Shown here one piece after another: positions 4,232 through 17,853 of a DNA stretch of 64,000 nucleotides (the stretch's first letter is position 1; every line of letters begins with the position of its first letter). The stretch is from a phage. The translations under genes and the position numbers were made by a program. The stretch lies in the sequence record PX969468.1, one strand, 5' to 3'. The notes beneath the pieces are model-generated. The model saw only the letters and a list, made by a program, of their open reading frames with translations. It was not told where the DNA came from and did not search any database.

Positions 4232-4918
4232 ATGGCAGAGATTAAGTCGGATGTCAACCACATCCACACTCTGCCAGATTTTGTTCAGGGAGGTCTTGAT
4301 TACCTGCCTGGGGATTTTCTGGCTGAGAAGGTTAATTTAGTCACATTCTTAACCGTGTACCTTAAAAGGTTGGAGAATGTTGATAAAATACTGGTAGGCT
4401 TGGCTGAAGGAAGATTGCTTAACAATGCCAGCGGGAGATACCTTGACGAAGTTGGTAATCAACTTGGTATCCTTAGGAATGGTCTTTCAGACGCGGATTT
4501 TCGTGCTACGCTGATTATTCAGCAGGCAGCATCATCAAGAGGTGGTACTCGCGAAGATGTCATCTCCACCTTACGACAGTTGTTCGGAAGAGATAATTTC
4601 GATACGTGGAAAGGTGACAATTTCAGGTTTGACATAAACATTAGAAAAACTTGCTTTGACATATTGCAGTCTATCGACCAGATCTTAGATATGCTGCCAT
4701 TGCCTTGTCATTTGCGTCTTACGGAATCGCAAGGGCAAGCTTTTGGTTTTGAAGGGGACTCTGCAGCTCTCGGCTTCGGATCAGTGTGGGAAGAAAACCA
4801 GTTCGGGGTTGGTGGGTTGGCTACTTTGTTATATGTTCCTGACGTAAGACCTGATTGGGACACCACAACTATTTATTGTGAAAGTATTACAGTAAACGCA
4901 ACTAGACAGGAGGGTTAA
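4232..4918 (+). CDS. Structural-module protein, function unknown
   Basis: 228-aa ORF, RBS GGCGGTGAG; stop overlaps next start (TAATG). Confidence 0.55.
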   Translation: MAEIKSDVNHIHTLPDFVQGGLDYLPGDFLAEKVNLVTFLTVYLKRLENVDKILVGLAEGRLLNNASGRYLDEVGNQLGILRNGLSDADFRATLIIQQAASSRGGTREDVISTLRQLFGRDNFDTWKGDNFRFDINIRKTCFDILQSIDQILDMLPLPCHLRLTESQGQAFGFEGDSAALGFGSVWEENQFGVGGLATLLYVPDVRPDWDTTTIYCESITVNATRQEG

Positions 4919-6990
4919 TGGCAATAGCTGTTTTTAAACCTTACCGTGATTACTCTACAATGGCTGCACGGTTTCATTACCGCACAGTTCAAGATACTGC
5001 AGTTCCAGGTAGGGATTATGATCATGTTGAGGGTGATATAACTATTCCGGTTGGGGCAACCAGTATTGAGATTCCTGTAGAAATTGTTGACAAATTGCCA
5101 AACAGGTTGCCAAGAAGCTTCTTTATGGAGTTTTCATCAAACTCCCAAGGGGTTATGATTGGAACACAAAGAGCGAAATGTACAATAGTTTCAGATGAGA
5201 ATCTTGACAGAATATCTTGGGATACCGTTGAGGAGAGAATGTTTCACCCAAGATACTGGGTTACAACCACACAGCAGACTGAAAGCACCTGTATTGTTGC
5301 GGATAATAACTGCTGTATTAACCGTTTAGTGTCAAGAACATATGGAGGCATGGCTGGGTGCATTTGGGAAACAGTTGACAAGTATGACCATTTCGGTATT
5401 GGATTTGATGATCACTACGAGATGAGAAACACCAAGCTTTGGTTCAGAATGTCAATAACCAATGCCAGCAACTTTTCCACCCCTGAAAAGATGATTATGA
5501 CTGTAGACCTTGTTGATGGTACAATCATCTATGTTCCTTTAGCTCAATATGCTGTCAGCATCTCAGAGGATAAGAATGTTGCAGAAATTCATATTGATTT
5601 CGAGGACTGCGTCGGGATGGACCAGAACAACAACATGATGGGTGTTGATCCTCGGCAGGTGAGAAGGATTCTAATACCACTTATGCCTAAAGATTGGGTA
5701 GGTAATAGCACAGACCCGAGAACGGAAAATGTAGAGTGTGAGCTGCGTCTAGATCTGCTTCAGCCGGACACAGGCTGGAAAATGATGCAACTTAACAATA
5801 TCCAGGTGAAAGAGCACGACGTCGGGATCTGCACAGCATATGACGATATGTGGAACGTATCCCCTTTAAGGGTGTTGAGCAATATCAAGCGCCTTGGCTA
5901 TACCGGAACCATAAATCATTATGTTGGTATGAGTCATTATTATGACTACACATGGTCAGGAACCCAATGGTCTATAAACAAAACAGGGGCTCTAAACGCT
6001 GCAGCTTATAAATGGCATGATGATTTTATGTACAATGCCAAACGACATGACTTCGACGTTATGCAGTCTGTAAGCTTTGAGCTTTATAGCGATGCCTGCC
6101 CGTTGGAATGGACCCAGAGAGACTGGAACGATAACTATGCTAAAACAGGCTATACGCCTTGTAGTTACCTCCTGTCTCCAACCATTGAAGAGGGTATGAA
6201 TTTCCTTACTGCGGTATTTAAGAATTTTGCATCAGCCGCTATGAGAAACAACCTGCCAGTGATTATGCAGATTGGTGAACCGTGGTGGTGGTTCAATACC
6301 GATACTCGTAAGCCTTGTATTTATGACTACCCTACAAAGCAGGCGTTTTATGATGAGACTGGTGAATATGCACTAGACATTGGGACTATTGACGATCCTA
6401 AAACTGGCGGTGTTTATGACAAGTATGTAGCATTTTGTCGTGGTAAGCTTGGCGCTCGTATTGCAGCCATTTCAAAGGCAATAAAAGCACACGCTGCATC
6501 GGCTCAGATGACAGCTTTACTGTTTTTCCCCACTATTATGGAAACCGAGCTTACGCAAAAACTGAACCTTGCTGACCAATATAAAAAGGAAGCAGGTGCT
6601 CTTGATTTCTTCTGCACTGAGTGCTACGATTGGGTGATGCAGGGAGGTATTGAAAAGGCAAAAGAGTCTGTAAACATACCTATCGTTAAGTTAGGTTGGA
6701 AACCGTCTGAAATACAATACCTTGCAGGGTTCGTTCCTAGCAAAGAGCTTGCTCCGGTATATGGCTACGACCCAACCAGGAATTACCAAGAATTTTTATG
6801 GAGATGTATTTGCGGAAACATGGCAACCATAGAGTATAGATACCCTGAGGTAAAACAGTATGTGTGGGCATACCCGCAAGTAATGTCTGACAGCATCACT
6901 GTTACCGCTAGAGATTCTACCGTGCTTCATATGGGGCAGGTTGCTCTGAAAGGGTATGTAGAAGATGTTGTCCCGCCAGACTTCTCATAA
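4918..6990 (+). CDS. Structural-module protein with N-terminal Calx-beta-like domain
   Basis: 690-aa ORF; N-terminus TVQDTAVPGRDYDHVEGDITIPVGATSIEIPVEIVDK fits Calx-beta pattern. Confidence 0.55.
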   Translation: MAIAVFKPYRDYSTMAARFHYRTVQDTAVPGRDYDHVEGDITIPVGATSIEIPVEIVDKLPNRLPRSFFMEFSSNSQGVMIGTQRAKCTIVSDENLDRISWDTVEERMFHPRYWVTTTQQTESTCIVADNNCCINRLVSRTYGGMAGCIWETVDKYDHFGIGFDDHYEMRNTKLWFRMSITNASNFSTPEKMIMTVDLVDGTIIYVPLAQYAVSISEDKNVAEIHIDFEDCVGMDQNNNMMGVDPRQVRRILIPLMPKDWVGNSTDPRTENVECELRLDLLQPDTGWKMMQLNNIQVKEHDVGICTAYDDMWNVSPLRVLSNIKRLGYTGTINHYVGMSHYYDYTWSGTQWSINKTGALNAAAYKWHDDFMYNAKRHDFDVMQSVSFELYSDACPLEWTQRDWNDNYAKTGYTPCSYLLSPTIEEGMNFLTAVFKNFASAAMRNNLPVIMQIGEPWWWFNTDTRKPCIYDYPTKQAFYDETGEYALDIGTIDDPKTGGVYDKYVAFCRGKLGARIAAISKAIKAHAASAQMTALLFFPTIMETELTQKLNLADQYKKEAGALDFFCTECYDWVMQGGIEKAKESVNIPIVKLGWKPSEIQYLAGFVPSKELAPVYGYDPTRNYQEFLWRCICGNMATIEYRYPEVKQYVWAYPQVMSDSITVTARDSTVLHMGQVALKGYVEDVVPPDFS

Positions 6991-10388: not shown

Positions 10389-12134
10389 ATGGCGCAAGAC
10401 ATGACAAGCTTCGAGCAGGCGGTAGATCAAGTAATTGTTGATTCTGAACGTTTGCACTTGATTGTCAACGGTAACGCTGTGGATGAAGTTGTCGTAGAGG
10501 ATGGGACCACCATCCCTACGGTACGAAAAGCCATGCTTGACACCCTTTATTTTAAAACGCCACCAATCCCTTGGGCGTATGGTGCATCCACAACAGTTTT
10601 TAACCAGTTGTATGAGTTTAAAGGGGATACAGGCACTCAGTGGTGGTATGCCCCAGCAGCATCAAAATCTAACCCGGTTAGGATGCCAGCAGATCCTTCA
10701 CAATCTCCGAACTGGAGATTATATACCGATTCTGCAGTAATGGCAAAATACTACGCAAAACTTAACAGTCCAAGGTTCGAAGGTGACCCGAGAGCACCTA
10801 CACCTCCAATGGACGATAAGTCCGAGTCTATAGCAAACACAGAGTTTGTTGTTGACTATGTGGATAGTATATTCAAAGCCATGGAGGGGATGAAAGTAAC
10901 TGTAGGGTCTTTGGTAGTAAAAGGTCTTACAGAACTGGCTAACACCATAGTTGGTGGCACCCTTACCATACACGGGCCTGTTAATGGAGCGGATTCTACT
11001 GCACGCTTCAGGAACCTAATCCTTACTGCAAATACTTCTACACTAACTTTTGCGTGGAGCGATCCTAAGCATGCCGACTGGAGAAGCACAGAGCTGCAAC
11101 CTCATGAAGTATCCACCCACAGAGTTATAGCCGACACTATAACCTCTGGGAAACCAGTGGCTAATAACAACGATGTGCATTTTGACGGTCTAGGTAATAA
11201 CTTTTTTGACTACGTGTACATTCGTGGTAATGCCATGAAGGCAGCAACCGAACCGACATTGCAGGTCGATGGGACCACTAGGGTTAAGAACCTTGAGGTG
11301 ACAGGTACCGTTACAGGGATAACCTACTCTGTCGATGGCACCATGATCTACCCTAGCTATATTGAAAGCACGGGTGACGCATTAATAAATGGTGATTTGG
11401 AGGTTGGCGGGTCTGTAGTTATTCGAGGTACGGCCTCTATCCAAAACATAGCTCTGAATACTCTCAGAGTCAATGAGCGTGCAACTTTTGAAGGAGAAGG
11501 GCTTACAGCCAACAAAGGTGTAATTACCGAGCTGACAACCACCACTTTAACTGCAACAACTGCAAACTCTGAAAACTGCAACGTTACCAGAAACTTGCAG
11601 GTAAATGGGGATGTTAGTTTAAACGCAGCAGGTACGGGCACCACCTACCTTCACAACCTTGAAATATCCGGCACAGTGACTGGTTGGCTGCCAGACTTCT
11701 CTAATGTCAACTTTGTCTGTAATGGTATTAACTCTAGTGGTAAGATAACCACCTCTCAAGAAATTGAGGCTGGTAAAACCATCACTGCCCCTACTTTCCA
11801 CGCAGGGAAGGTAGATTTCGATTTAGAGGAGGTTGACGCGTCCAGTGGGACATGGACACCTAACGGGCAGGCCAGTATGTATGTTGTCCACGCTAAAGGG
11901 GATTTTACAATAGGCCAATGGCCTGGAACATCGGCTGAAGATAAACCTTACCCGTTTACTGCAATCATCTATGTCATTCAAGATGCCGTAGGCCACAACG
12001 TGACTTTGCACGATAAATATGCCATACTGTCGGCTACCCCTGTTATTAACAACAAAGCCAACAGCGTCACCTTGCTACAATTGACATATTGTGGTGTTGG
12101 TGATATCGTAGATGTGGTTATTGCACAACGTTAA
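10389..12134 (+). CDS. Tail fibre protein
   Basis: 581 aa, Thr/Gly/Asn-rich beta-type repeats (LEVTGTVTGITYSVDG..), RBS AAGGAGA. Confidence 0.65.
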   Translation: MAQDMTSFEQAVDQVIVDSERLHLIVNGNAVDEVVVEDGTTIPTVRKAMLDTLYFKTPPIPWAYGASTTVFNQLYEFKGDTGTQWWYAPAASKSNPVRMPADPSQSPNWRLYTDSAVMAKYYAKLNSPRFEGDPRAPTPPMDDKSESIANTEFVVDYVDSIFKAMEGMKVTVGSLVVKGLTELANTIVGGTLTIHGPVNGADSTARFRNLILTANTSTLTFAWSDPKHADWRSTELQPHEVSTHRVIADTITSGKPVANNNDVHFDGLGNNFFDYVYIRGNAMKAATEPTLQVDGTTRVKNLEVTGTVTGITYSVDGTMIYPSYIESTGDALINGDLEVGGSVVIRGTASIQNIALNTLRVNERATFEGEGLTANKGVITELTTTTLTATTANSENCNVTRNLQVNGDVSLNAAGTGTTYLHNLEISGTVTGWLPDFSNVNFVCNGINSSGKITTSQEIEAGKTITAPTFHAGKVDFDLEEVDASSGTWTPNGQASMYVVHAKGDFTIGQWPGTSAEDKPYPFTAIIYVIQDAVGHNVTLHDKYAILSATPVINNKANSVTLLQLTYCGVGDIVDVVIAQR

Positions 12135-12142
12135 TATATCTG

Positions 12143-12170
12143 ACCGCTCCTGACGGGGCGGTTTTCTTAT
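12143..12170 (+). terminator. Intrinsic terminator
   Basis: ACCGCTCC-TGAC-GGGGCGGT hairpin followed by TTTCTTAT. Confidence 0.65.
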
Positions 12171-12182
12171 CTGGAGAACACA

Positions 12183-15100
12183 ATGCTTCCAATCCCTTTG
12201 CTAAAACTTGGTCGTCATTTCCTCGATAAGAGGGGTGGAGTTAAGGAACTTGCTGTTCTGTCATACCCAATAGACAACAGTGACGGTACAAGCACTACAG
12301 TGCCATATGTAAATAGCTTAGCCATACTTTTTGACGACGGTCAACTCAATATTACAGGTTACAACAGGTTCGGGGAGTGCAGGACTGGAGATCTTGACAC
12401 GATAAACTACCCAAATGAGGCTGCCTGGAACGTTGATCATGTGTGGAGAGCAGACCGTGCGTTTGTGATCCGAACTTTTGATAATCAGTTTTTCTACATC
12501 GGCTGCACTGCAGGGCTTATTGGATCTGATGCTGCAGGTGGTAATGATGTTTGTGTAAGGGAGTGGACACCTCTTCCTGAACAGATTGTTAAAGGGTTGC
12601 ACCTTGACACCCACCCGGAGCGCCTTGTTGAGGTGATGGGTGGTATTAACAACACTGTCTGGGTTATTGCAGAGGCAGAAGGCACAGGCATACTGAATCT
12701 GTATGGGTCTGGTAACAACACCTACGGATCTTTGCATGTAGATAAAAATCAGCATGCAACCCCTGTAAAGATCGGTGAGACATCGGAAAATCCTGAAACA
12801 GGCCCTTGGAAAAACCCAAGCATTAACTGCGAGGTGCATGACAACTCTGTTATTTTCGGTGGTCCTAGAGGTTTCTGGATTGCTGGATACGACTTTCTGA
12901 GAAATAACAGTAGAAACGACCTTGTTTGGCCTCCTGTGCAGATTACTCGTAACGATTTGAGAGGCATTCCTGCAGATGAGGAGTGGAAAGGGTTTATGTG
13001 TGGTCCTAACGGGGCAATAATTGCCACACAGAGGATGCACAAACCTAATGACCAGCAGCTTGTTAACGTATTCTACGGGCAAGACGTCTGGGGAGATGAC
13101 ACATGGCGTTCCTTAAATATCACCTACACCCATGAGGTGATAATGGCTCGTGGATACGGCACAAGTGGCATTTTCTTCAATAATGGCACTAAGCAGTATC
13201 GTGGGTTCTCTCGCAACTTGTGTAATGATATTGGTGCACAATCTGCAAACAATAGCCCTAGGGCCAATTTTATCCACTATCAAGCTCTTGCTACAGCTAA
13301 ATATGTTGAGCAACGCCTGCCAGTTAGCTGGACAGAGAGTGTTTATTTCCAAGGCATCCACAGAGAAGGTTTCTTAGGGACCTTTACTGTTGTTAATGGT
13401 AAACTTTGGTGGTCAGGCATCCCGAGGGGAAGTTTTGCAGGATCTAACAACCTGTTTGGCGGCAGACTTAATAGTCAGGGGTTCACAGAGGTTCCTGAGA
13501 ATTGGTATAAAAATGTCCCAGTAGACAGTTGGGGTGTTGATGATATTTTCGATGTTAACGGTGTTAGCAGCGTTAGCAATATCTACATTGGTGACACGGT
13601 CAAGATGAAACTGAAGCCTCAGCCAGAGGGGGCTACGTTCATTATTGACAAAATTGAACTGGTAAATGCTGCAGGCACGGTTGTTACAGATGCAAATTAC
13701 CAATTCTCCACCAACTGGAACCACGGTGGGGCCAACGAAGTTGTTGTTACCCAATATAACAGAAATGTTAACAGACGTGGACTGTACTCTGTAAAAATAA
13801 CCTATCATGACAAACATGGCACAGGCAGAACCCACACAACAAGGACTTTGAACTGGAACACTATCGTCCCAGCGTACCCGTCTGATGGTAAATGGCATAC
13901 TGTCGGTAGAAACAAACAGTTCCATGTCAACGATACTGTATACTTTGGGTTGAATGCCGCCCAGCCTGCAGTAGAAGGGGATACATCGTATATGGTCAGA
14001 CTCCATAGAATGGATGCTGGATCAGTAACTTATGATGTTACTCAAGAGATTTATAATCAGCGACGAAATACCTATGATAACTTGGTGCAGACACAGGCCT
14101 TATGGGAGTTCAACCCAAACGGCAGAGGTGGTAAAATGTTGCAGGTCAATGAACAAAACTGGACATCGTTGACTGTTCACGAACACCAAAACCCTTGGCC
14201 TGATCCTGGAAAACCTAACTCTGGTGCTCGTACACTGAAAATTGTCAGCCATGATGTAGGGTATTTCGGAATACGCTGGGAAGCTACAGTAAGATATGCT
14301 GATGGGACAACAAACAACATAGGGATCACTCTTGGTGGCACTAGTGAGGATAACTCACTGAAAATTGCCTACACCCCTAGAGGCATCTCTATTGACAATA
14401 TGGATGTTGTTCGCAACGGTTACGGCGATGTGAATGTCAAAGTTACTCTTGGCGAACATCTTGGTGGGGAAAGGATCATCATGTATGCCTTTGATCATGA
14501 CCCTCGCACCAATGGAACCTATGCAGACCAAGCATGGAGTTACCTGATAAGCGCACCTGAGCCAAATACTAAAGAATTCTACTATGGTATGAAGCGAGAT
14601 GTGTGCAAGAAAACAGGAACACATGACTGGATTGCTATCTGCGTTAAAGATGAGCGCACAGCTTGGGATGAGCCTGTTAACAGATGGTTCATAGGTATTC
14701 CTACCAGAAGTGATAAGTATGTCGCAGAGTATATTGTATGCATGGGCGGTACCAACCTGAACATGTGTTGGAACGAAGATGTAAACAAATACTCTGATTA
14801 TGACTATATGAGGGATTACTCTTGCAATCTGTGGTTTAACCAAACTACAGGTTACCCTCCGCGTCAGGCAAGGGTAAATCCTGCAATCTTTACAGATACT
14901 CAGGTTTTCTTGACAAAACAGGCCAACGAGGTTCAGACCTTCAAGAATAAATACGATCCTAACAAGTGGTTCTACAACTGTTACGGCGCATTTTTCTGGG
15001 GCCCTGGTGAGTTACCTGGTGGAGGATCTTGCTTGAATGAGGCAACTTACGCCAGTGACTACATCATGGGGCAGGTCAAGAAGTATAAGATAATTCCCGG

Positions 15101-17810
15101 TCCTGAAACTCTGGGTAATGCCGTTGACCCTTATATCATCATGACTGCACTGAGATCCAACATGGACGGGACATCCATGTCTATGCAAATTCCGGTAACA
15201 AACGGGTACAAACGTGTTGTGATGATCATTAAGTGCGACTTAATAGGTAAACAAGTTCTTGCAGAAAACGGGACATCCACACATCCTTTTGAGGTTGCTC
15301 TGCACTATCAGTTTGCTGACTCACCTTTTGCAGGCGATAAGAGAATATCTGATACAGATGCACAGCGTTGTAAGAAAGTATTGTTGGGTGCAGGTTGGTG
15401 GTGGTATGAGTTTGATTTAACAGACAAATTCACCGACACGTCTAAAGTTGTAACAGGACTTCGTCTAGACCTTGGTGAGAACATGCACAAAGCTGTTTGT
15501 GATGGCACCTATGGTGACCCTACAATATACCTAAAATATATTTCTTTTGAGCATCCGGAAGATGTTGTCTACGGTCCAAAACTGAGATTGTTTGGCAGTT
15601 GGATTGCAAAAGATAGGGTAGGGATGGGTAAGAAGGTGAGAGGGTTCTTGGTTGATGCAGGAACAGAAGACATGCTGGTTAATGCAGTATGGCCTGAATT
15701 ACCCGGGACTCAGTGGAACAACTCAGCCAAATCTATAAACTGGTTTAACATTCATAGAGCCATGTGGACCACCAACTGCTACTTGTGGAGAGAGCTTAAC
15801 GATCAGGCCTTTGGCTTCAGCGATGGTAGAAGGATGGCGATCATTTGCTGGACAACACTGCAAAGATGTTATGACCATGACTACGAGATTGGGGGCAGGG
15901 CATGGAAAAATATCAGGGACAGAATCATAACCAATTTTGCAGACGACAACGGTGGTGGAGCACATAACTTTGGCACAAGCCGACTCATCCATTTGAACGG
16001 ATCCTCAGCCTACAAGAAAGAAGGTTACTCTGGGTCTATGATCGAGTGGGGTCTGGTGAAAGATGCTCGCGTATTGATGGGCCAGCAACTTGCTGCCGCA
16101 ATAGGTCCCAGCGCAGTGCAGTCGGTTAAACCAGCGTGGTTCGATATTCCAATATGGTCATCTGGAACACCAGGAACTGCTGCAATCAATCCTACTACCG
16201 GGGATCTGGAAATCTCTTGGGAGGACTTGAAGCAGGTTGGGGGCTGGGATAAGACAGGGTACCAGGTGCAATGGTGGAGGTCTGACGGATCGTTAGCTGC
16301 TGATGAGTTTGTTAAGGACAACTTCTACACCATGCCCTCTGCAAAAGCACAACAACTGTTCGGTCAGTCTACCCCGTCAACGATCACCATGTCCATGTGC
16401 TGTAAAGACAACAGGACTGGAGCTTTGGGCCCAAGGGTTGCTAAAGTTTTCTCAGGTATCAAATGGAATCTTCCTGTTCAAAGTGTTGCATGGAAGCAAA
16501 TAGGCGATAACAAGCTGCTAGTTACCCCAGCTTGTCAGTTCAACGCAACTCTTAACGTTGATCCTGCTGTTGCGGCAAACTCAGCTAAAGCTTCTGACTT
16601 CTCTGTGTCTAACACTGCCATGGCAGATGTGAGGAAGATTGACACGCTGAACGCCAGAATTACCTGTAAAAACACTTATGGCACATTTCAGATCATCAAC
16701 AACTTCACAGACGCGGATTCTAAGGTAGTGAGGACAGCAAGCCAGACTCTGAGTTTAGGAACTCTGGCCTATGCGGCCCTGATCACTGAACAGTCAGCAA
16801 CACTCCAAGGGGGTGGTGTAGGCAAGTCCATTACAACACCTGTGTGGAAGCCAAATGAGTGGGTTGTGTTTGATTTGACCGTGGACTTCTCCAGCGATAA
16901 TAACTGGACATGGGTAAGGAATTGCTTGTCACAACTGATGGGTGGTCCAAGCTCCGTTAGTGATAGCCACTACTCCACTGACCCGAGTGTGTTTCAGGTG
17001 GGTAAAACTCACCCGGAGACTGGAGCAACGTTGCCTGACAGGAAGTATGCTTTGGTTTGCATCTCTTACGGGAAGGCAGATGTCACCTTCTCAGGGACAC
17101 ACACTTATAACGGAACCTACAACTTCTCAAGGAAGTATAGTCTCAAAGCAGGGAACATTATAGACGAGGTTGGTGTGCTGTATAATCCTGGCAACGGCAT
17201 AGGGATTGTGGGCGGTAAACTGCAGATGCAGGAACCTTCTATTACCCCTTCCAACGTATCCGGGATTAGAAAGACTTGGGAAAGTAGTAATACCAACATT
17301 GCAACAGTGGATGCCACCACAGGGCTGGTAACATTTAAAGCTACTGGGAATGTCACCATAAAGTTTGTAGTTACAGATGATGCAGGCCGCAAAACGTCTT
17401 CAACATCGTTTACTGTCAGACAGATGGCACCTCAGTGGTTTATTTGGGAAGGAAATCCTCTTGACGGGGCTTACCCTAGACCTGCAGGAACGTCCAATAT
17501 GAGGGTCTTTACCGGTCCGGTCATGAACAATCCGACCACAACCACCAACCCTACATTTTTTGGTGCTTACATACCTGAAATTATTGGCCTACCAAGGAAC
17601 CAGATACAACTGCTTTTCGGAGCAGGTGTTGATGGTCTAGCCACTTTTGGGTACAGTGACAACATTGATGCAGCCAGAAGCTCGGGTTGGATTGGATTTA
17701 AGTTTCAGTGGAACCCTGGTGGTAGAACATTAGGTGTTGCAAGCATAGGTGTTATGCTACCTGGTGACCAGCAATACCATCTCGAAGCTTATACAAACTT
17801 CCCTAGTTAA
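12183..17810 (+). CDS. Large tail-associated protein (1875 aa) with C-terminal Ig-like (Big_2-type) domain
   Basis: Single long ORF; Big_2-like segment (ITPSNVSGIRKTWESSNTNIATVDATTGLVTFKATGNVTIKFVVTDDAGRKTSSTSFTV); Gly/Asn-rich repeats at N-terminus. Confidence 0.7.
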   Translation: MLPIPLLKLGRHFLDKRGGVKELAVLSYPIDNSDGTSTTVPYVNSLAILFDDGQLNITGYNRFGECRTGDLDTINYPNEAAWNVDHVWRADRAFVIRTFDNQFFYIGCTAGLIGSDAAGGNDVCVREWTPLPEQIVKGLHLDTHPERLVEVMGGINNTVWVIAEAEGTGILNLYGSGNNTYGSLHVDKNQHATPVKIGETSENPETGPWKNPSINCEVHDNSVIFGGPRGFWIAGYDFLRNNSRNDLVWPPVQITRNDLRGIPADEEWKGFMCGPNGAIIATQRMHKPNDQQLVNVFYGQDVWGDDTWRSLNITYTHEVIMARGYGTSGIFFNNGTKQYRGFSRNLCNDIGAQSANNSPRANFIHYQALATAKYVEQRLPVSWTESVYFQGIHREGFLGTFTVVNGKLWWSGIPRGSFAGSNNLFGGRLNSQGFTEVPENWYKNVPVDSWGVDDIFDVNGVSSVSNIYIGDTVKMKLKPQPEGATFIIDKIELVNAAGTVVTDANYQFSTNWNHGGANEVVVTQYNRNVNRRGLYSVKITYHDKHGTGRTHTTRTLNWNTIVPAYPSDGKWHTVGRNKQFHVNDTVYFGLNAAQPAVEGDTSYMVRLHRMDAGSVTYDVTQEIYNQRRNTYDNLVQTQALWEFNPNGRGGKMLQVNEQNWTSLTVHEHQNPWPDPGKPNSGARTLKIVSHDVGYFGIRWEATVRYADGTTNNIGITLGGTSEDNSLKIAYTPRGISIDNMDVVRNGYGDVNVKVTLGEHLGGERIIMYAFDHDPRTNGTYADQAWSYLISAPEPNTKEFYYGMKRDVCKKTGTHDWIAICVKDERTAWDEPVNRWFIGIPTRSDKYVAEYIVCMGGTNLNMCWNEDVNKYSDYDYMRDYSCNLWFNQTTGYPPRQARVNPAIFTDTQVFLTKQANEVQTFKNKYDPNKWFYNCYGAFFWGPGELPGGGSCLNEATYASDYIMGQVKKYKIIPGPETLGNAVDPYIIMTALRSNMDGTSMSMQIPVTNGYKRVVMIIKCDLIGKQVLAENGTSTHPFEVALHYQFADSPFAGDKRISDTDAQRCKKVLLGAGWWWYEFDLTDKFTDTSKVVTGLRLDLGENMHKAVCDGTYGDPTIYLKYISFEHPEDVVYGPKLRLFGSWIAKDRVGMGKKVRGFLVDAGTEDMLVNAVWPELPGTQWNNSAKSINWFNIHRAMWTTNCYLWRELNDQAFGFSDGRRMAIICWTTLQRCYDHDYEIGGRAWKNIRDRIITNFADDNGGGAHNFGTSRLIHLNGSSAYKKEGYSGSMIEWGLVKDARVLMGQQLAAAIGPSAVQSVKPAWFDIPIWSSGTPGTAAINPTTGDLEISWEDLKQVGGWDKTGYQVQWWRSDGSLAADEFVKDNFYTMPSAKAQQLFGQSTPSTITMSMCCKDNRTGALGPRVAKVFSGIKWNLPVQSVAWKQIGDNKLLVTPACQFNATLNVDPAVAANSAKASDFSVSNTAMADVRKIDTLNARITCKNTYGTFQIINNFTDADSKVVRTASQTLSLGTLAYAALITEQSATLQGGGVGKSITTPVWKPNEWVVFDLTVDFSSDNNWTWVRNCLSQLMGGPSSVSDSHYSTDPSVFQVGKTHPETGATLPDRKYALVCISYGKADVTFSGTHTYNGTYNFSRKYSLKAGNIIDEVGVLYNPGNGIGIVGGKLQMQEPSITPSNVSGIRKTWESSNTNIATVDATTGLVTFKATGNVTIKFVVTDDAGRKTSSTSFTVRQMAPQWFIWEGNPLDGAYPRPAGTSNMRVFTGPVMNNPTTTTNPTFFGAYIPEIIGLPRNQIQLLFGAGVDGLATFGYSDNIDAARSSGWIGFKFQWNPGGRTLGVASIGVMLPGDQQYHLEAYTNFPS

Positions 17811-17820
17811 CAGGAGGCAA

Positions 17821-17853
17821 ATAAAAAGGGGGCCAGACGGCCCCTTTCTTTTT
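17821..17853. terminator. Bidirectional intrinsic terminator between convergent modules
   Basis: GGGGCC-AGAC-GGCCCC hairpin flanked by A-tract on one side and T-tract on the other. Confidence 0.75.

Follow-up and report, generated by a model that had tools for sequence, protein, structure and literature searches.

The gene studied here is an open reading frame (ORF) at positions 12183-17810 of a 64,000-nucleotide stretch of phage DNA (sequence record PX969468.1), the whole of which we call the window. The ORF lies on the + strand, opens with ATG and spans 1875 codons for a protein of 1875 amino acids (aa); a GGAG ribosome-binding site stands 6 nt 5' of the start. It is the final + strand gene in the baseplate/fibre block: a bidirectional terminator follows, and the genes beyond it are read from the opposite strand. 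An earlier sequence-only reading of the window had given precisely these coordinates and this length, and rightly placed the gene at the end of the structural module.

A conserved gene of Vequintavirus

Megablast finds the gene in 122 phage records, nearly all of them Vequintavirus, at 88-95% nucleotide identity; the top full-length match is Bas59 EduardKellenberger (95.4%). The window belongs to a Vequintavirus, that is, to an rV5-like myophage of E. coli. The phrog_15684 family profile matches the protein with E=0 and 4422 bits, aligning residues 1-1874 to profile positions 1-1877 of 1878. In rV5 the ortholog is gp27 (1878 aa, 208 kDa), which a 2013 listing calls a 'conserved hypothetical protein' and credits with Big_2; in BASEL the orthologs, such as bas54_0041 and bas59_0040, are named 'lateral tail fiber protein with intimin domain'. 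These proteins are 1875-1879 aa long, share 90-99% amino acid identity with the ORF product and keep the same position, as last gene of the tail-fibre operon behind a gp28-type fibre. Nothing material sets them apart from the window copy, which carries the commoner of two C-terminal tip alleles. The gene itself is not new, being annotated in over 100 genomes, and it has been published that E. coli K-12 can be infected without it.

A word-indexed search of 5.8 billion clusters matched the protein to 15 of them, the majority following only its first ~76% before continuing into a differing C-terminus; one, P0015, retains 40% identity over the full length and the same gene order. Database entries APECc02, V18 and ime hold only fragments of the protein. 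We also note 15-20 'Campylobacter phage' records in GenBank (MG0656xx, host Campylobacter jejuni, genomes of 135-150 kb) in which either this gene or its phAPEC8-type counterpart occurs, 90-97% identical to coliphages; contamination by coliphage or a wrong host label is the probable reason.

Compared with seven equal-length orthologs, at a synonymous divergence (dS) of 0.2-0.6, the + frame shows a ratio of nonsynonymous to synonymous substitution rates (dN/dS) of 0.048-0.072. All regions of the ORF are constrained (dN/dS <=0.09) save the last 115 residues, whose dS is too low for a verdict. The ORF is far from a chance product: the gene is real and under strong purifying selection. The same cannot be said of the 254-aa antisense ORF inside it, which had been suspected to be spurious: stop codons interrupt its frame in four of the seven relatives and its own-frame dN/dS is 1.4-3.3, so we consider it a shadow of the sense frame.

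Domain layout of the protein

The N-terminal ~445 residues are the best-conserved part of the ORF across the wider family. Residues 42-116 match phrog_4219, 'regulator of chromosome condensation' (E=6e-8; the phAPEC8 homolog reaches E=4e-34), and the module is 35% identical to phAPEC8_00180 over its whole length. BLASTP also pairs it with P0019, a protein of 503 aa (E=7e-27; identity range, together with phAPEC8_00180, 35-37%). In both of these homologs the RCC1 repeat of Pfam exceeds its cutoff of 21.7 with 24-26 bits, and the RCC1-like WD40_RLD domain is matched at E~1e-11. In the ORF itself the RCC1 domain (PF00415 / PF25390, IPR009091) stays below cutoff, with RCC1_2 alone appearing at 14 bits against 22 (E=0.048); for this reason the module is called RCC1-like by homology. 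Blade motifs of this type, GGINNTVW and YGSGNNTYGSL, lie behind what had been read from the sequence as N-terminal Gly/Asn-rich repeats. By composition the N-terminus has no such bias over the rest of the chain, G occurring 8-14 and N 7-11 times per 100 residues along most of the protein.

Within the same phage subfamily, Septuagintavirus W70 encodes three proteins of this RCC1-like superfamily by PHROG profile, W70_237-239 (phrog_4219), which mass spectrometry (MS) clearly detected in virions with 141-233 spectra each (PMC11370258). They differ from the ORF product in being single modules of 40-43 kDa, encoded elsewhere in the genome and devoid of any Ig or carbohydrate-binding extension. PHROGs places phrog_4219 in its DNA metabolism category, and help in DNA packaging was suggested for W70_237-239 (PMC11370258). 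The 'chromosome condensation' label looks like a name transfer from eukaryotic RCC1, and we think it likelier that these proteins are propellers exposed at the surface. Searching the literature for RCC1-type propellers in phage fibres gave nothing specific.

The middle of the protein has no sequence relatives to lean on. With nine 400-aa tiles, Pfam reports nothing between residues ~450 and 1680; a phmmer/HMMER search of residues 451-1650 against 1.84 billion representative proteins retrieved just two, both members of the family; and the family profile, run against PDB sequences, gave a best E of 0.24. This core of ~1200 residues is an orphan, with no relatives outside the family among those 1.84 billion representatives. 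Structure prediction suffers accordingly: the alignment is shallow, and the two-member search result allowed no deeper one. For residues 1-1000, AlphaFold2 (AF2) with the 16-sequence family alignment yields a mean predicted local distance difference test score (pLDDT) of 41.7, and the fold search was not applied to that model, its propeller region being unusable.

Several domains of the core can nevertheless be delimited (Table 1). Two beta-sandwiches are predicted with moderate confidence, and a weak Bact_surface_Ig-like match occurs in P0003 at the place equivalent to the first. Residues ~937-1125 form a predicted jelly roll that is structurally similar to solved carbohydrate-binding modules (CBMs), a resemblance of fold only; no CBM sequence family is matched by Pfam in residues 450-1680. 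The helical region that follows matches no family and no PDB entry, and many W, E, D and C residues are invariant in it across the family alignment.

The C-terminal array, residues ~1330-1760, is better predicted. Foldseek relates it to protocadherins, to the S-layer proteins Sap, SbsB and SbsC, to the immunoglobulin-like (Ig) domains of PrgB, and further to Lig proteins, the C-terminal domain of lambda gpV, intimin and an SU10 tail protein; among viral models it retrieves Hoc and Ig-bearing major tail and head proteins. Residues 1593-1760 match phrog_215. The Big_2-like domain expected near residue 1700 is indeed present and is the sole Pfam domain above threshold in the protein, at 33.5-37.8 bits against a gathering cutoff of 22.8. 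The 'intimin' label of the BASEL annotation reflects this Big_2 fold alone. We rejected an intimin identity: NCBIfam NF033627, whose cutoff is 1400 bits, reaches 22 over 39 residues, the intimin match in the PDB search covers 48 aligned residues, and the ORF product, unlike intimin, is devoid of a beta-barrel, of LysM and of the C-type-lectin domain that binds Tir.

The last ~125 residues are the only allelic part of the protein within the genus. Two alleles exist, one shared by the window, Bas59 and Bas54, the other by YN3 and Bas53, and a sharp recombination boundary separates them from the rest near gene nt 5256. There megablast identity to YN3 stops, after 98% identity across the remainder of the gene. 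In Bas50 the tip is cut by a frameshift.

The recognisable folds of the protein are of a binding type. By none of the methods used (Pfam, PHROG, NCBIfam, Foldseek, PDB profile) did we find a beta-helix, lyase, sialidase or esterase, any glycoside hydrolase, polysaccharide lyase or carbohydrate esterase family, or another catalytic family or fold; NCBIfam gave the sub-threshold intimin Ig match alone, and PADLOC nothing. Pfam and fold searches of the ORF product likewise matched no trimerisation motif (coiled coil, triple beta-helix, collagen repeats, intramolecular chaperone); the neighbouring fibres, by contrast, show beta-helix-like, collagen or Tail_spike_N features.

Table 1 Coordinates of the ORF, its domains and the adjoining features in the window
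Feature	Position	Strand	Basis
Whole ORF, ortholog of rV5 gp27 / bas54_0041 / phrog_15684	12183..17810	+	homology, dN/dS 0.05-0.07
N-terminal RCC1-like (beta-propeller-type) module, residues ~1-445	12183..13517	+	homology
Predicted beta-sandwich (Ig-like) domain, residues ~452-564	13536..13874	+	AF2 strands, pLDDT 59-73
Second predicted beta-sandwich domain, residues ~737-838	14391..14696	+	AF2 strands, pLDDT 57-77
CBM-like / lectin-like beta-jelly-roll, residues ~937-1125, 13 strands	14991..15557	+	
Helical region, residues 1126-1328	15558..16166	+	AF2 helices, pLDDT ~25
C-terminal FN3/Ig-like beta-sandwich array, residues ~1330-1760	16170..17462	+	AF2 pLDDT up to 92, Foldseek
Pfam Big_2 (PF02368) Ig-like domain, residues 1682-1733	17226..17381	+	E=4e-8
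C-terminal tip, last ~125 residues (~1752-1875), beta-rich	17436..17807	+	AF2 pLDDT 50-75
254-aa antisense ORF, spurious	12318..13082	-	stops in relatives, dN/dS >1 in own frame
581-aa lateral fibre, rV5 gp28 ortholog, phrog_4549; proposed carrier	10389..12134	+	phrog_4549 E=3e-250
C-terminal head of upstream fibre, residues 477-581; proposed docking site	11817..12131	+	51% identity to phAPEC8_00179
Terminator-like hairpin in the 48-nt gap ahead of the ORF	12142..12163	+	
Bidirectional intrinsic-terminator-like hairpin ending the late fibre operon	17826..17847	.	

Dispensability and the neighbouring fibre

Phage Bas54 tolerates transposon insertions in bas54_0041 on E. coli K-12, where the gene is dispensable, and we confirmed bas54_0041 as the 5628-nt ortholog of the ORF. 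The gene upstream of it, bas54_0040, is outside the published dispensable list. Natural alleles tell a similar story: 3 of the 12 relatives examined, each of them an isolate from E. coli K-12, carry a copy disrupted by nonsense mutation or frameshift, consistent with the dispensability of the Bas54 ortholog. A stop interrupts the gene at codon 82 in nomine and at codon 617 in magaca, and in Bas50 a single nucleotide is deleted near codon 1818.

In these phages, the receptor-binding protein for the K-12 NGR glycan has been mapped to another fibre, a deacetylase-domain protein. By synteny with Bas59 bas59_0033 and rV5 gp34, window positions 4918-6990 encode a fibre with glycosidase and deacetylase domains; according to recent work, this fibre binds the N4 glycan receptor. 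The counterpart of this fibre gene adjacent to P0015 carries Pfam NCTSP_N and TIM-barrel_NCTSP.

Immediately upstream of the ORF lies the gene of a 581-aa lateral fibre. It is homologous end to end (E=6e-77) with phiTE protein 241, which PDB 9cuy/9mjn models as a 'putative tail fiber protein'; it is the LTF of phiTE, and a helical bundle at its N-terminus binds the wedge and the sheath initiator. The fibre protein phAPEC8_00179 has an unrelated body (Tail_spike_N and collagen repeats), and only its last ~105 residues are 51% identical to the window fibre (E=4e-27). We found the head domain in 386 phage records, on otherwise unrelated fibres; its carriers include phi92-like, PVP-SE1-like, Klebsiella and Proteus phages and jumbo phages of ~350 kb. 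Where head and RCC1-module matches are both present, the head ends about 45-55 nt ahead of the RCC1-module gene, without exception. Comparative genomics thus supports a predicted partnership between the two modules.

The closest parallel is phAPEC8_00180, a Phapecoctavirus 'tail protein' of 891 aa (phrog_11922). Like the ORF, it is the last gene of its fibre locus, is preceded by the same fibre head and a terminator, and combines an N-terminal RCC1-like module (35-40% identity) with Big_2 domains. Unlike the ORF, it lacks the orphan middle of ~1200 residues, its propeller running almost straight into the Ig domains.

The short gap between fibre and ORF holds a hairpin, ACCGCTCC-TGAC-GGGGCGGT, followed by a T-rich tail. 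Nine Vequintavirus genomes, whose flanking genes have a dS of 0.2-0.6, share it unchanged but for a single base at the stem's foot, and terminators are annotated at the equivalent junction in phAPEC8 and phiTE. The hairpin may dampen expression of the gene behind it, and a low copy number of the product would agree with that.

Proposed placement on the fibre head and competing explanations

We now propose, giving it an even chance, that the ORF product serves rV5-like myophages as an accessory adhesin, non-essential and associated with the virion, held by its propeller on the head of the upstream fibre and using the rest of its length to bind glycans or other ligands. Most likely, the N-terminal RCC1-like propeller would anchor the product to the C-terminal head of the lateral fibre. 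The remaining chain, comprising the beta-sandwiches, the CBM-like jelly roll, the helical region, the Ig/FN3 array and the allelic tip, would then point outward, to where particular hosts, or the natural habitat, could offer it surface glycans or other ligands to bind. Synteny and the co-conserved modules make the fibre-head placement probable, together with a cryo-EM observation: in the RBPseg work on Bas54 and Bas49, the Vequintavirinae fibre class named TC8 has a helical bundle at its N-terminus, a pair of beta-helices and a head at its C-terminus, and unassigned density is reported on this head.

Several points weigh against this proposal. The TC8 description fits the upstream 581-aa ORF, the identity of the two being taken from the verbal description only, and the protein went unidentified in the cryo-EM studies of Bas49 and Bas54. 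In the MS table of rV5, locus 27 is represented by three non- or semi-tryptic peptides (9 spectra, 3.1% coverage), which puts it level with the non-structural rIIA, and its authors left gp27 without a mark for MS evidence; we find that all three peptides correspond to stretches of the window protein with at most one residue different. The head-to-propeller pairing is moreover not universal. In phi92-like phages the gene after this fibre head encodes an Ig protein that starts with Big_2 and has no RCC1 module, and phiTE_242, which we considered as a diverged RCC1 module, proved unrelated (BLASTP E=0.05, hhalign probability 0.4%); it belongs to phrog_15692, a family identified as a virion protein by MS in W70 (PMC11370258). 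The AF2 model of the propeller region (residues 140-435) is poor, with a pLDDT of ~25, and ~500 residues have no assigned fold, so that a catalytic domain could still reside there. The direct evidence that the product is part of the virion is weak, and such an association is plausible only.

The last of these points leads to the first rival, a virion-borne depolymerase or glycan-modifying enzyme with a new catalytic domain in residues 565-736, 839-936 or the helical 1126-1328. Invariant E1162/D1163, E1235, E1280 and E1288 of the helical region would suit it, and CBM and Ig flanks are found in many bacterial glycoside hydrolases. We consider it rather improbable. The sequence-only reading had offered an adhesin or a depolymerase, as a central fibre or tail-spike with enzymatic or adhesive domains. 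It proves half right: an adhesin-type protein of the fibre locus is supported; the enzyme, tail-spike and central-fibre variants are not, with neither beta-helix nor lyase in the predicted structure and fold searches and no catalytic domain in the Pfam tiles. Hardly any credence can be given to a tape-measure-type or central-fibre protein, for which only the great length speaks. The role of tape measure belongs to the rV5 gp49 ortholog, whose gene lies upstream of the fibre locus; the ORF product is rich in beta structure and built of modules, not one long helix, and it is dispensable for infective virions, unlike a tape measure or a central spike. Dispensability and domain content rule both out, so the conventional tape measure that would have refuted the sequence-only reading does not materialise.

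Glycan binding is also the mechanism in a Hoc-like decoration, a dispensable Ig array on tail or head that would adhere weakly and non-specifically to mucus or environmental glycans rather than recognise a host; it differs from our proposal in location and target. T4 Hoc and other Ig-domain decoration proteins (surveyed by Fraser et al. 2006) are, like the ORF product, strings of Ig-like domains, conserved strongly and yet dispensable in the laboratory; in the product these would likewise be exposed on the particle, and the Foldseek matches of the C-terminal array include Hoc itself and Ig-bearing major tail and head proteins. Hoc is, however, a capsid protein of ~40 kDa, whereas the ORF product, at 208 kDa, is far above known decoration proteins and adds a propeller and a CBM-like module. 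Its gene ends the fibre operon beside a baseplate fibre, not among head genes, its N-terminal module and the head of the adjacent fibre are conserved together across genera, and the allelic tip suggests a specificity linked to hosts. We judge such a decoration to be rather improbable too. Somewhat more doubtful is a late-expressed protein outside the virion, for instance a scaffold for fibre assembly or a factor set free at lysis. The marginal peptides in rV5 virions, two cryo-EM studies in which no density was assigned to it and the terminator-like hairpin ahead of the gene all agree with it. Against it stand the domains, which are extracellular binding-type folds, and the finding that homologous RCC1-like modules and the positional equivalents of the product are W70 virion proteins verified by MS (PMC11370258); and since infective virions form without the ORF product, it is not a required assembly factor.

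The accessory adhesin also admits a bolder form, which we regard as unlikely. A single 208-kDa chain would cap the trimeric baseplate fibre through its RCC1-like propeller, as a symmetry-mismatched tip adhesin; it would account for the Bas54/Bas49 density, and its core would hold a new glycan-binding or -cleaving fold that sets host range on natural E. coli with a capsule or O-antigen.

Beyond its domain map and its proposed placement, this is an ordinary, already annotated phage gene, and our additions are modest: recognition of the RCC1-like module and the CBM-like jelly roll, the orphan status of the core, strong purifying selection together with repeated loss among phages isolated on K-12, and a placement on a phiTE-241-type fibre head that can be tested. 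The existing Bas54 transposon mutants, together with EMD-51869, offer a cheap and concrete test of the map and the fibre-head proposal, and the map would show engineers which module to swap, the C-terminal tip. Altogether, the largest gene of its locus is strongly conserved and yet dispensable on K-12, implying a role in natural hosts or habitats outside laboratory screens.

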